Positions 36,001-45,000 of a DNA stretch of 64,000 nt are shown in pieces (position 1 is the first letter of the stretch; the number at the start of each line of letters is the position of its first letter). The DNA is from Gemmatimonadales bacterium (GTDB lineage Bacteria > Gemmatimonadota > Gemmatimonadetes > Gemmatimonadales > GWC2-71-9), in assembly GCA_037189525.1 (NCBI GenBank), contig JBBCJC010000001.1:480001-544000 (forward strand), in the 5' to 3' direction. The position numbers are program-made.

Positions 36001-39000
36001 CCCGATACCTCTACCCCCGCGCCTACCTCTCGGCGGCCAGCGCCATCCTGCTCGGCCCCACCCGCGATGGCCGGCTGTTCCTGAGCGGGCGCAATGCCCG
36101 GCGGACGCGCCTTCGGGCACTGGAGATCATCCAGAACGTGGCGCCCGAGCATCCATCGACCGCCCCGGCGTTCATCAACGACGGCATGGGCGAATTCACT
36201 GTCGAGGTGTCCTCGATCCGGCAACGTTTTCTCGAGGCATTCCGCATCCGAGGCGAGCACGCCGCGTCGCTCGACGAGGCCATGCGTGAGGGCGTCGCCA
36301 GGCGTCTCGTCGAAGAGTACGGCACGCCGCAGGCCGCCGCCGACGCCGTCTGGCGCCTGGCACGGGACAACGCATGGTATCGCGAAGGGGAACGCGCCGA
36401 ACGCTTCCTGCTGCATCGGCCCACAGCCACGCCCCCGCGCAACAAAGCGGCGCTGGACCTGACGGTTGCCTGGCATGGCACGCCGGTAGGCCGCCTGATG
36501 CATGACGGATTCGAATGGCGTTGGTACAGTAACCCATGGAAAGCGCCACCACTGATCCGGCAAACCACCCCGGGCGCGCTACCGCCCTTCATCGTTTCGT
36601 TGCTACCCGAAGGCTGGCTGGAGTCCGTGCTCCGCAGCAGCGACGAGCGCGCGTTGCTGCGGTCCGGCAAGCGGTACATGTCCAACATCACGATCGTCGA
36701 GCAACCGAGCGAATTGACCGAGTTGCCGGCCGACATCCTGACGACGCCGCTGGCGCGCTTCACGAACGACGGCATCTTCACCGGGCACTACGCCGGTCCG
36801 GGGCGCGGCCCGCTCGAAGAAAGTTTCGAACGCAACCTCGCCGCGATCTTTGCGGACAGCCGCACGCCGCGCTTGTCGGGCATCCAGATCAAAGCGCCGA
36901 TGTTCCTCGCGGAAGACGGCTCCTTGTTGCCGAGTGAGGACCGGCCGTTCACCCATATCCTCAAGCCCGCTGGCACCGGCGGCTTCGAAGCGTTGCCGCT
37001 GATCGAGTGGCAGGCCCTAACGCTTGGCGCAGCAATCGGACTCGACACTCCCGCCATGGCGCTCGTGTCCATGCCGGACGGCTTGCCGCCCGCCCTACTG
37101 GTCGAGCGCTTCGACATTCGCCAGAGCGAGAACGACACGCGCCTGCTCGCGCTAGAAGACCTGTGTTCCGTGTTGGGTGTCCCCTCATCGGCTAAGTACA
37201 GCGGCAGCATCGAACGGGTGGCTCGCGCCCTCCGGCCGCTCTCGACCACACCGCACGATGACCTGCTCGTCCTTTTCCGGCGTGCACTGTTCGCGTGGTG
37301 CATCGCCGATGGCGACATGCATCTCAAGAACCTGGCGTTACTCAAGATCGCCGAACCGGGCAAGGCCGCATTCGAAAGTGTGCGGATGGCGCCGCTCTAT
37401 GACGCCGTCACGACCCGCGTCTTTCCCCATCTGACGCGAGACCGCATGGCGCTCATGATTAACGGCAAAGACGATCGACTGCGCCGTTCCGATTTTATGA
37501 CTATGGCTGCAACGATCGGGGTACGGCCAACCGACGCGAAACAGACCATCGACGATCTGACCGCGCGCCTGCGCACCGAGATTGGTACACTGACCCTGCC
37601 GACCATCGCCGTCGAGTCACGAACGGCCGACCGCGCGGCTGCCATGCGCCGACTCGTAGGGGAACGAATCGATACACTGGCATAACGGAATCGAGCCTGG
37701 AAATTGATAGCTGAGGGAAGCTAGGGAGTTTCGTTTCGAGCCTGCAACCTCTCGCTTAGCAGCCAGCATTGTATGACTCCACAGTACATCAACGGAGATA
37801 CAATCAAACGCGCCTGCCTTTCGGGCTAGGGTATCGCAGTCCGGTTGGTCTGCGAAGCGTAGTTCAGACAAGCAACCTACCGTATGTCCACTAAATCGAT
37901 GCGGCCCTAAGACAAGAGCAGGTTCGTCGACGCTCGTTAGCTGGCCTGAATAATGTCGGACGATTGCACTACCACGGAATCTCGGCACCAAGGTAAAGAA
38001 GCTTTGCTTCGAGTTCTTTACGTTCGCGGCTCCGTGCCATTTCGCCAGACTCCGAAACGGCAAGGAGGCCTGCCTGCCTCGCGACATCTCTTGCCCGTTT
38101 AACATCACCTGCGATGAGGGCCCCGAGTACGTCGACCTCCACTCTCGAAAGTGAGACAGAGTGCAGTCTGTAATCACCGAATGCCTCCCAAACAATCGGC
38201 ACCCACCGCGCAACCACCTGTTCGCCGATCAACTGTGCATAGCTTCGAATCTCGTATTGAGCGTGCGTGTCCATCCTAAGCAGGAGAAAGTGGAGCAGAT
38301 TGTGGAGGTCGATCTTCCAGTATGCTTCTGTATATGTAGAAAGAGGTAGGTCTTTCCGCGCTTGCTCACGTGCCACTCCAGCGTTGAGACGGGCTTCATA
38401 AACACGCCTCAGTTCCCGGTGGATGGCCTGTTCCTCATCTGACAAGACGGAACCGATCGCCAGAGGAAGAAATCCGTCACTACCTTGCCGGTTCTCACCG
38501 GCCTGTTGGCGCCATCGATCCGCAGCCGTCTGTTCAGCGGAGTCAATCGCGACGGAATAGCGAGTCGAATATTCGTTGACACTCGCAGTTCTATGGCGGA
38601 TCCATTGCCGCCATACATCCATAGGTGCGCGCACGTGCAACTTGATCTCACACATCTCAAACGGCGTAGTGTGATGATGCCGCATTAGATACCGAATCAA
38701 ACCGCGATCCTCATGCACACGCTTCGTTCCAACACCGTAGGAAACGCGAGCTGCCTGCACCACAGAGGCGTCGTTTCCCATATAGTCTACGACCCTCACA
38801 AATCCGTCATCGAGAACGTGGAGCGGAACACCGAGAATCGCGTCCAGATCGGGCGTGATCGGCCGACCGACCGGCTCCGGCTTAGATACGCCACCATCCG
38901 CCGCTCCCCTCACCGGCTCAGTCATCGTAGCTTCACCTTACCCCCCTAGCTCCAAATACGCCCGTCTCTCTCTCGTTGCGATGTCATCGACAAGCGCCTT

Positions 39001-42000: not shown

Positions 42001-45000
42001 TGCCTGAGCAAGTCAAGTGGCTTTCGTCGCTCAGGGCCGGTTCCATCCCGCAGAAGCTTGCCAAGGTCTCGCTGCATCGAACGGAGGATGTGACGATGTG
42101 TGGGCGTCGCGACCGCATGATTCACGCGAGCGATGATACCGTCGATTATTCGCGCGAGACCATGGTAGTCGTCTTTGAGCTCAACAGCACCGCCCGTAAC
42201 ACCGTACCCGAAATCGGAGACATAAATCTCCGCACGCGGCCGTAAGGTATCGTCAAGCAGTGCCTCAGTTGGAGTACCAATGAGAATATTTCCCGAGTGC
42301 AAATCGCCATGACGCGGCACCCCCTTCACCTCACAAGCGTGCAGCACTCGCAGGATCCGCTCAACAACAGCGAGCAGGAATCCGGCGTCTACGGTACGGA
42401 CCCTTTGGAGGTACTGTGCGAGATTTTCCCCGGGCGGAACGAAATCCCAGACCGTATATTGGCATAGGTGAGTGCTACCCCCAAGGGATATACTTGCTGG
42501 CCCAAGGTCATGGAAGTGTACAACGCCGTCAACGCGATCTAAGCTGGTGACTTTCCTAAGCTCGGCTTCCCACCCACTCTTTAGACTGAAGGTTAATTTT
42601 ACAGCTCGAATAGCGTCTGGAAATTTCTCAAGGGAAGCTCGGTAGACGTAACCAATCTTACCTGCACCGATGAATTCGTGCAGCACCAAATTTCCCACAC
42701 TTTGGCCGCTCAAGTTACGGCACCAGTCGTCAGGAGGCCGAGACATACGCAGCTATCGCTTGTGGTAAATCAGCACAGTTTCGTGCTTTGTTCCACGGCA
42801 CTCGCGTCGGGAGCGCCGAATATCAGGAATACTGTCCTCGTAAGAGGACGTCAGGCGATAGTCCCTCAAACGCGGAGCATTTGCGAATACTTCTTGAACC
42901 AGCTCTGCCGTACGCACGGGCTGTGATACCCTACGTGTCACGTCTCCCACCACGAGCACGAAACAACCACCTGGTAGGATGTTCCCAGCAAACCTATCGC
43001 ATACAGCCCTGAGGAGGAGGCGAAACGCCTCGGCTCGACCATGGCCACTGAGTTCCAAACCCTTTGGCAGCGTCTTATTGATAAACCAAAGCCGAAGACG
43101 ATTGTCTCGGACGTAGTCCAACTCATTCATATAAGGCGGGCTCGTAATCACCGCGCGAATCCCGCGAACTCGCGGAAACTCGCGCGCATCGCCCGTAACC
43201 ACACGACGAGGCTCTAAGTACGGCGAGGGTTGCCGCCGAAATGTTCGGAGAATTTTCGCTTCCAACCTTGGGAGCACATCGCGGGGCTCGTACAGGTCTG
43301 GGTATTCTCCTCGCGGGAATTTCCGCTCGCGGAGGTAGGGCACCAAGTGACTACTTGGATATGACAAGAACCCGGGCCGCTGGTGATGTAGTATCCCTAG
43401 GAGGCTCGCCAGTAGAAACTCGTCACCTAGTCTCACACAGGCATCGCGAAACGCTAGTGCAGATCGAAGCGTTTCCGGATGGAAGAATCTTCGAACCCAA
43501 GGAGGGACCGTTCTAAGGTCCTGGTGGGCAAACCGATTTTGGGCAACTGTCCATGCATGATGGAGACGCTTCTGAGCCGCTGCTATAGATCGAGGGGGAA
43601 ACAGTTTGGCGCGAGTAAGTAGAACCGCGTACGGATTCCAGTCACCGACCACGACTCGACGCTGCAATGCTGCGGCTTCAAGAGCAACGACACCACACCC
43701 ACAAAAGGGATCAACAATCAAGTCTCCCCTTGCCGTTTGCGAACTGATTAACTCACGCGCCATCGACGTTTTCATCCGGCCGATGTATGGTGCGAGTTGA
43801 TGTAGGCTAATGTCGGTTGCTGTGGTCGAGCCCCTTGACCATGGAACCTGACGCATGACGCTACCAAGTTTTGGTGCCGCGGGTTTCCGTTTGGGCAATT
43901 GAACCCCAATGTAGAGTGCGGCGGTTCGAGTTCATCGGACTCGCATGGACGCCGAAAAGCTGTCGCTTAAGTAATTGCTACCATTGACGATACGACGACA
44001 ACCCCCTTTTCGCCACCCTCGCCCGATGCAGCCTGTTGACCCCGTTCTGATAGCCATCTGAGTGGCTCGATCCTCCTCCAATCGTCCTGTAACCACGACG
44101 ATGATGCGATTGCGGCGCCGGCGCCGCTCTTGCCAAGCAGCGCCAACGTCTAAACAGCTGCGGGGAGCTCCGCCGAAACCTCATCAGAGAGGCGAGACGC
44201 TGGCGACACACAGGAGGCACTCGCGATCTACTCCGTCCATAGCGACCACCGCGTGGTATGGGTCGAATAGCCTCACCCCTTGAAATCGGCGCGGATGGCG
44301 TCGAGCACGTGGGCGGACACCTGTTTGAGCCGGCCCGCGATGGTCGCGAACGGTGAGATCACCACCGGCGTCGGCGTCGCCTCCTGGCACGGGTCGCCGT
44401 CATTGGGGGGCTCATCGGAAAGGGGTTTCCTTTGACGCGGAGAACCACGAAGCGAGGGCTCACCGGCCCGTCCAGGTCCGGCCATCCGCTTCGGGAAGGG
44501 CTCTCGAGTTCTTGGCTGCCCCGCCCTCCCCGCTTTGCCGCTACCCGGCCGGTCGTGCTTTCCAGGCGGCCAAAATCTCGGCCTCACGTTTCATTTGCTG
44601 ATCCATCGACGCTGGACCAGTCAGGCCGGCGCCCCTGAGGCCGCCACGCATGGCGCTCCGACGCTCCTCCGGTTGTTCCTTCCACCACGCCAGGGTGTCA
44701 CGGACAGTGTCGGCAAATGGCCGGAATGCCATGCCATTGGCGAAACAGCGTACCGGTGAGAGGCGGGCGAGGCCGTGGTAGGGGCCTTCTTGATCGACCC
44801 ATGGCATCAGGCTGACCGGCGGGACGCCTGATTCCGCCAGGAACGGCCCGGGTACCCAGGTCAGCTCTGGCTGCGCACCGATCGCGGCGGCGATGCCCTC
44901 GAGCATCTGGCCCATTGTCATGCCGTCTTTGGGCCCGATGGCATGGAAGGTATTGGTCAGCCGCTGTTCCACGCAGTGGAGACTGAAATCGGCGAGATCG

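Follow-up and report, generated by a model that had tools for sequence, protein, structure and literature searches.

A compact cassette of four closely packed minus-strand genes lies in the 64,000-nucleotide stretch of Gemmatimonadales DNA analysed here (the window). In order of reading these encode a DNA amino-methyltransferase (42753..43898), a Hanks-type Ser/Thr kinase fused to an ORC/Cdc6-like AAA+ ATPase (40035..42746; 903 aa), a tandem two-lobed CARF protein devoid of an effector domain (38938..40035; 365 aa) and ThyX, a FAD-dependent thymidylate synthase whose lineage is associated with such cassettes (37969..38925; 318 aa). Successive genes are spaced by a 6 nt gap, a 1-nt TAATG overlap and a 12 nt gap. 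On re-run, the four ORFs of a first-pass annotation proved real, its Pfam, PADLOC and NCBIfam scores were obtained again and its low GC content (0.54-0.56 against 0.657 for the contig) was confirmed, as was its report of a second thymidylate synthase in addition to genomic thyA and DHFR, which adjoin each other on contig C2 of the same genome. Its methylase start (43763) is probably to be replaced by a TTG at ~43898 (381 aa) because alignments with homologues begin at residue 1-20 of the extended reading frame. GC3 is 0.53-0.60 in the cassette compared with 0.82 in ppc. The cassette was not found in 60 relatives and is a horizontally acquired module; neither a terminal repeat nor an att site turned up convincingly between 14000 and 50000, and promoter and terminator matches around it stay at chance level. 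Next to it, on the opposite strand, follows a HipA-like kinase gene (35844..37685, plus strand; GC 0.65) with a weak AbiEi-like N-terminus (Pfam HipA_C 1e-39, AbiEi 1e-3), which is not part of the cassette and had no match beside related loci. It separates the cassette from Hma (23722..35341, minus strand; PADLOC HmaA/B/C 1115-1684 bits; PMC12839542), a type-1 BREX-related system into which a GmrSD_N gene (Pfam GmrSD_N) is inserted. Hma, previously placed beside the cassette, shares the island as a separate system. Functional coupling between the two was rejected, the window's Hma proteins being matched beside 1 of 93 related loci.

The methylase, which matches Pfam N6_N4_Mtase and PADLOC MTase_II (9e-19), had been called N6-type, a label that its motifs do not support. 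Motif IV reads SPPY in all 48 homologues printed and comes after FxGxG; here, too, motif I stands ahead of motif IV (TSPPY), which is the alpha-class order. Since such a motif IV together with FxGxG-first order indicates (though it does not prove) an N4-cytosine methylase, the enzyme is probably, going by sequence, of the N4-cytosine rather than the N6-adenine type, and its weak PDB matches include N4C enzymes. No nuclease domain was detected in the four cassette proteins by Pfam, PADLOC, NCBIfam or fold comparison. A type II restriction-modification system, also considered, was dropped, no cognate restriction nuclease having been detected among the four proteins.

In the fusion protein, profile and fold agree on a kinase domain (~aa 1-260), whose catalytic loop reads HGDLHSGN and not HGDLHAGN as first given, while the ATPase part scores 76.5 bits, above cut-off, with PF24389 (ORC-CDC6-like) and carries an Arg in its P-loop (GPRGCGKT). 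Catalytic loop, DFG and Walker A (GxRGCGKT) are each kept in 47 of 48 homologues. The model of the protein is poor in its ATPase part (pLDDT 63).

CARF likeness had been confined to the N-terminal half of the third protein; the fold holds up but the confinement does not, as all 365 aa are modelled as two CARF-like lobes (AF2, 114 sequences, pLDDT 95.8), with conserved loops in both (DISxMSK and APxGSK); the two halves align with each other in register, if weakly (E 0.06). VIA-align ranks Can1 first (6sce, Z 14.2, rmsd 3.9, 237 aligned), then Csa3 and Card1, and its top 16 rows are all CARF or CRISPR-ancillary-type proteins (Z 8.8-14.2); plain Foldseek put USP-type folds above CARF proteins. 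PADLOC points the same way with eight of nine matches to tandem-CARF models of the CARF6 group (best 3e-11, 41 bits, aa 22-343), and among 114 family members Pfam Csa3_N and CARF_Card1 match 9 and 4, weakly. Sequence search with the CARF alignment found no solved structure and an ESM Atlas search returned only unnamed clusters; the family counts 544 representatives at 50% identity. CARF classes have reportedly been set out by Makarova (2020). We assign the two-lobed protein, from its modelled fold, to the CARF superfamily, with cyclic-oligonucleotide binding at the lobe interface as a putative property. Like the type III CRISPR sensors Can1, Csa3 and Card1 it has the CARF fold, and as in Can1 there are two lobes per chain, but here these come without a nuclease or HTH effector and without CRISPR context. 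Neither Cas10 nor a SMODS cyclase was found in the host genome (98% complete).

The conserved, widespread unit consists of three genes: the kinase-ATPase gene is present in 66 of 66 cassette clusters, the methylase gene in 43 of 43 with enough flank or a match, and core gene order is kept down to ~35% identity. Distant versions swap the effector position for HD-CE, PRTase-CE, TIR or metallophosphoesterase. Such ORC-CDC6-like cassettes with PRTase-CE (PF24390) or HD-CE (PF24391) have the ATPase family, double CARF and methylase in common with ours, whose effector is instead a kinase fused to the ATPase. PF24389, PF24390 and PF24391 reportedly go back to Burroughs and Aravind 2020. That the three-gene core serves in defence against mobile genetic elements is in our judgement probable. 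A module for addiction or stress signalling, kept stable by the methylase, would likewise do without a nuclease domain and might travel, as one related cassette does, on a plasmid; the defence-island setting here, restriction genes adjoining several relatives and interchangeable immune-type effectors such as TIR make it very improbable. The first-pass idea of an anti-phage module that pairs a CARF sensor with a kinase-ATPase and needs no CRISPR or cyclase partner stands as to acquisition and partners, with defence itself only probable.

Whether the system is undescribed, as had been claimed, is a matter of degree. A fused family of Zn-ribbon, Ser/Thr/Tyr kinase, AAA+ (Arg in the P-loop), CARF and wHTH domains is described in the part of Makarova et al. 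2014 available to us (PMC4012209), and PADLOC holds CARF6--CARF_STK_AAA and CARF6--CARF_CARF_CARF models. Kinase, Arg-P-loop AAA+ and CARF are common to both arrangements, the C-terminal end of one fused kinase-AAA-CARF protein is matched by our CARF profile (probability 98%), and PADLOC CARF6 models cover most of both proteins (kinase-ATPase: CARF6--CARF_STK_AAA, 8e-19, aa 89-704), albeit at 41 and 65 bits, far from a close match. In contrast to the fused family, the present cassette encodes these parts in two separate genes whose stop and start codons overlap, has no Zn ribbon or N-terminal CxxC, and couples them to an SPPY methylase and thyX, neither of which is mentioned in that part of PMC4012209; it would work alike, yet it stands outside the fused architecture. 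Being a split relative of a catalogued family, the cassette is therefore not wholly new. Literature searches, judged from their listings, gave no published description of the cassette or of ThyX in defence, and passages of PMC8070346 and 10.64898/2026.10.19.760177 hold nothing relevant to the cassette; such gene neighbourhoods may already be depicted in Makarova 2020 or in Burroughs and Aravind 2020, supplementary files included.

ThyX belongs to TIGR02170 (175.6 bits against a cut-off of 87.9), retains RHR-x7-S-x-R as well as the remaining active-site columns of solved ThyX, and thus shares all catalytic motifs with housekeeping and phage enzymes. With dN/dS of 0.04-0.16 in the six closest pairs, thyX is, by these sequence measures, intact and under purifying selection. 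A fixed four-gene unit, as first proposed, is not what we find: thyX occurs in 19 of 52 cassette clusters (absent from 33) and along the CARF tree its presence switches nine times, with four or more of these switches forced. Such repeated loss is what one would expect of hitch-hiking cargo from phage that plays no part in defence and that thyA hosts keep because it is useful in general (antifolate tolerance, low-folate growth), and two further observations agree: the lineage is surrounded by phage ThyX in trees, and two copies (L054, L243) are convergent with the cassette, hence not co-transcribed. Against cargo, the same lineage also adjoins HD-CE and PRTase-CE versions that are distant, the cassettes beside it having several gene orders and CARF proteins just 17-20% alike, and ThyX-only searches of 350 Acidobacteriota and Latescibacterota genomes uncovered three new close cellular relatives, all directly beside ORC+CARF cassettes. 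The best four of 80 viral-contig ThyX matches listed also adjoin HD-CE cassettes. Moreover, ThyX distances track CARF and kinase distances (rho 0.68-0.85), one branch unites 12 of 13 cassette ThyX across effector types (SH-aLRT 87), and placing all 13 in a single clade is not rejected either (p-AU 0.77), in trees whose deep branches are weak and one of which was built with FastTree. Cassette ThyX forms a branch apart from sampled cellular and planctomycete-labelled ThyX. A planctomycete housekeeping origin of thyX was considered; the separate branch speaks against it, with a support of only 85, and planctomycete and phage ThyX come about as close in identity (59-66%). We hence regard the cargo explanation as unlikely: thyX is accessory and repeatedly lost, yet does not look like random cargo, and its functional coupling to the cassette is likely. 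To that extent ThyX was rightly counted with the module.

Host range adds a hint that cuts both ways. Cassette thyX is found in five of nine thyA hosts, as a second synthase, against none of ten native-thyX hosts (one-sided Fisher p 0.011), in a small sample of phylogenetically non-independent hosts found partly through thyX, and a cargo gene made redundant by a native thyX would give the same pattern. Within split kinase cassettes alone the difference was not significant (p 0.18, before G1236, a PRTase type, joined). Genome G483, flagged as unpublished, was excluded and supports none of the claims made here. That thyX is seen only in thyA hosts would also suit self-resistance, in which the effector (here the kinase) starves the phage by switching off ThyA/DHFR or depleting dTTP, while ThyX guards the host from leakage or lets it recover. 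Where a toxic module has a spare copy of a housekeeping function next to it, that copy often points to the target, as in antibiotic clusters, and other cassette effectors are nucleotide enzymes. Yet ThyX accompanies three unrelated effector types and thyX-less cassettes persist in thyA hosts, in at least two of which (G063, G064) the cassette is a close one, making self-resistance quite improbable.

So to our minds ThyX may tie defence to host thymidine supply, and we tentatively favour, with doubts that slightly outweigh our confidence, a mobile anti-phage system of the CARF6 / ORC-CDC6-like family that is guarded by methylation and works without a nuclease, with ThyX as metabolic helper. The methylase would mark host DNA, and the ATPase, judging from its family, may oligomerise on unmarked or foreign DNA. 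The CARF protein, like Can1, would bind a nucleotide cue in its inter-lobe cleft (a fold known from the model), one not made by any Cas10 or SMODS enzyme of the host genome. ATPase and CARF protein could jointly switch on the fused kinase, which would arrest the cell by phosphorylation. ThyX would act as an ordinary dUMP methylase, an optional but selected accessory rather than a subunit, allowing thyA hosts to turn dUMP into dTMP without ThyA/DHFR while infected. Phages reportedly inhibit ThyA. Phages that block ThyA or divert dUMP to uracil- or hydroxymethyluracil-DNA would, as the most likely purpose, be forced back towards thymine DNA readable by the system; hmdU phages evade some restriction enzymes according to PMC3184105. 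That ThyX supplies such a dTMP flux against these phages is conceivable, though we are somewhat doubtful. If true, this would add a nuclease-free, restriction-like logic by which hosts counter base-modifying phages through metabolism.

As to the ligands of CARF proteins outside CRISPR, the recurring thymidine enzymes offer a concrete ligand class and phage class in a compact, intact cassette of 6 kb. The double CARF might sense a pyrimidine deoxynucleotide, be it dUMP, dTMP or one modified by phage, whose level ThyX or a thymidine-phosphorylase-like gene sets as off-switch or amplifier. Kinase cassette versions are accompanied by these two different thymidine enzymes, the latter replacing thyX in fused kinase-AAA-CARF relatives; ThyX goes with the shared ORC+CARF core rather than with the effector, and the absence of Cas10 and SMODS matches from the host genome would fit as well. 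Clover, a defence system linked to the level of thymidine nucleotides, shows that infection can be signalled by dTTP (PMC12265719), which is a conceptual precedent only, with no shared proteins, and PMC4012209 suggests phage-specific nucleotides as ligands of another CARF family. Yet the nearest folds bind cyclic oligoadenylates and most cassettes have no thymidine enzyme, so that we think such signal tuning unlikely. A broader version is also rather unlikely: a CRISPR-independent immune family in which the double CARF reads pyrimidine-deoxynucleotide state and a domesticated phage-type ThyX acts as counter-counter-defence enzyme, either draining dUMP, which would expose thymine-replacing phages to the methylation-guarded ATPase, or setting the trigger level. 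In that case immunity would employ ThyX as an accessory enzyme and CARF as a sensor of thymidine nucleotides. Complex prediction for CARF and ThyX scored 0.00 in two runs, from which we draw no verdict. As a separate observation on the locus, one contig of run X1, from which this DNA may stem, covers 34000-46000 with zero differences.

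The four open reading frames for the methylase, kinase-ATPase, CARF protein and ThyX lie nearly abutting on the minus strand (37969-43898), each with a single copy in the genome and a GC content of 0.54-0.56 (GC3 0.53-0.60) that is below both the 0.657 of the contig and the 0.60-0.62 of the neighbouring Hma genes. Since no full-length kinase-ATPase was found among 60 relatives (two weak matches cover the kinase domain only) and the CARF profile matches only 2/400 other genomes of the phylum, the block is acquired, in agreement with the foreign low-GC origin proposed in the first-pass annotation. 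As also proposed there, the host has thyA next to the DHFR gene on a different contig, besides the extra thyX; searches of this genome revealed neither a Cas10-type nor a SMODS gene.

The idea of a fixed four-gene unit, however, is not supported. Our 91 CARF-gene loci (six taken from genomes, 80 that ranked best among 340 metagenome matches, two on viral contigs, one on a plasmid and two from further genome regions) reduce, at 95%, to 79 clusters. Where the flank is long enough or a match is present - a criterion with a slight bias towards positives - we find the kinase-ATPase in 66/66, the methylase in 43/43 and thyX in 19/52, and the CARF tree has nine changes of thyX state (at least four forced), best read as repeated loss. 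Hence, the core is three genes and thyX is optional, being present in 17 of the 27 clusters with a CARF identity of 55% or more and in 2 of the 25 below that value (both copies convergent). Gene order can vary: loci L013-L015 place the methylase downstream on the opposite strand rather than upstream, in the cassette of genome G474 (L243:2954-4844) two genes, for a ParA-like ATPase and a SIR2 protein, are inserted between methylase and kinase-ATPase, and a variant locus (L314:3916-11123) has HAD-like, PRTase-CE, ORC, CARF-like and PfkB kinase genes with no methylase recognised.

The 903-aa protein joins a Hanks-type kinase domain to an ORC/Cdc6-like ATPase (PF24389), and its catalytic loop, DFG and Arg-containing Walker A are each conserved in 47/48 homologues; its structure model (pLDDT 63) is poor past the kinase domain. 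In a Bradyrhizobium plasmid copy (L096:6273-8968) the annotation splits kinase and ATPase into two ORFs that overlap, and loci L034 and L036 likewise have a frame break in this gene. The family of the 365-aa protein numbers 544 representatives at 50% identity, and its model (114 sequences, pLDDT 95.8) has two Rossmann lobes. Both are covered by the best structural match, Can1 (Z 14.2, rmsd 3.9, 237 residues), which is followed by Csa3, Card1, Csm6 and Can2, while plain Foldseek ranked USP-type folds first; the CARF likeness suspected earlier holds for the whole protein and not for its N-terminal half alone. In the methylase, which had been called N6-type, FxGxG precedes TSPPY, and SPPY is kept in all 48 homologues printed. 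This order is typical of, albeit not proof for, alpha-class N4-cytosine enzymes. A cytosine-type methylase occurs in every thyX-bearing cassette with a methylase seen, and neither of two Dam-type cassettes carries thyX, which is too few to weigh. To our minds, the methylase would mark self DNA and the ATPase would sense DNA that lacks the mark or is foreign; a nucleotide would act through the double CARF to gate activation, and the kinase would arrest the cell. One rival view is that the cassette does not serve defence.

As to novelty, PADLOC CARF6 models match the cassette proteins, and PMC4012209 describes a small family in which one protein fuses a Zn ribbon, a kinase, an AAA+ domain whose P-loop contains Arg, a CARF domain and a wHTH. 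The cassette works alike in split form but lacks the fusion and the Zn ribbon. The family was already catalogued; a literature search, with the likeliest sources and supplements outside its reach, returned no description of an operon that joins methylase, kinase/ATPase and CARF genes, nor any that places ThyX in defence. The cassette is, in sum, a real and intact variant of a catalogued family with a putative function.

The associated ThyX passes TIGR02170 with intact active-site motifs. Its dN/dS (0.04-0.16 across the six closest pairs) is similar to that of the core genes, and its distances correlate with those of CARF (rho 0.68-0.85) and kinase (rho 0.76), for which linkage alone could suffice. 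Searches with ThyX only gave close relatives in 2/200 Acidobacteriota and 1/150 Latescibacterota genomes and no new ones in 400 Pseudomonadota or 200 own-phylum genomes. All three directly adjoin ORC plus double-CARF cassettes, one of kinase type and two of PRTase-CE type (that of genome G1236 assigned by motif); of 389 viral-contig matches 80 were listed, and the top four of these adjoin HD-CE cassettes with C5 methylases, two also with Vsr, whereas those ranked next are ordinary large-phage genes. The cassette is mobile and its effector slot is swappable, and across the cassettes beside this ThyX lineage the CARF proteins are only 17-20% alike. In the ThyX tree, 12/13 cassette copies share one branch spanning effector types (SH-aLRT 87, not strong), separate from eight planctomycete-labelled and four other cellular ThyX, and the data do not reject a clade that unites all 13 (p-AU 0.77). 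In the bootstrap tree, support is confined to the 12 tandem kinase-type copies (99/97), with the rest unresolved among phage genes. One HD-CE cassette (L103:4016-8341) has an HhH-GPD glycosylase fused to the C5 methylase, then thyX and a separate Ser/Thr kinase. Several own-phylum housekeeping thyX genes (e.g. G115:C1:2369774-2371222) give split matches, with two segments in a single long open frame, which suggests that an intein or similar element is inserted in frame.

Among 19 genome-resolved cassettes of all types, thyX accompanies the cassette in 5/9 thyA hosts (G000, G065, G468, G474, G1236; not G063, G064, G593, G570) and in 0/10 hosts with their own thyX (Fisher p 0.011; 0.029 when G000 and G135, a contig-end case, are left out), in a small sample where kin are not independent and three cases were found via thyX. 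Were thyX mere cargo, redundancy would give the same host pattern. Against cargo stand the purifying dN/dS with the correlated distances, the cassette context of 3/3 relatives and of the four viral-contig matches, the shared branch and the host pattern; these four lines say that thyX is selected together with the cassette family. It is probably ThyX activity rather than physical partnership that counts, because host thyX seems to replace the cassette copy and thyX follows the core across three effector types.

Some thymine-replacing phages inhibit host ThyA. We favour a role in which ThyX would supply a ThyA/DHFR-independent route from dUMP to dTMP against phages that replace thymine; according to PMC3184105, phages of this kind employ dUMP hydroxymethylases and withstand certain restriction enzymes. 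Rival roles are self-resistance and signal tuning, in which ThyX would adjust a pyrimidine ligand of the system and for which Clover (PMC12265719) is a precedent. A thymidine-phosphorylase-like gene lies directly upstream of both fused kinase-ATPase-CARF genes fetched. The cassette-associated ThyX lineage is the interesting part, as it points to thymidine nucleotides as the battleground of this cassette family.

The island also contains Hma, whose proteins have matches beside only 1/93 loci, with a GmrSD_N gene (30063-31766, minus strand) between hmaA and hmaB and overlapping both. The left edge of this low-GC island has a WYL/WCX (PafBC-like) gene pair (17109-19219, minus strand), which may regulate the island; a gene for a beta-CASP metallo-beta-lactamase (15550-17202) comes next. 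A NACHT-like gene encodes a 1485-aa protein (19177-23634, minus strand) that combines a nuclease-like N-terminal segment (by eye) with a weak NACHT and NCAB2 C-terminus; PADLOC gave no strong match for this Avs-like candidate. A HipA-like kinase (35844-37685, plus strand) carries a weak AbiEi-like N-terminus in the same chain.
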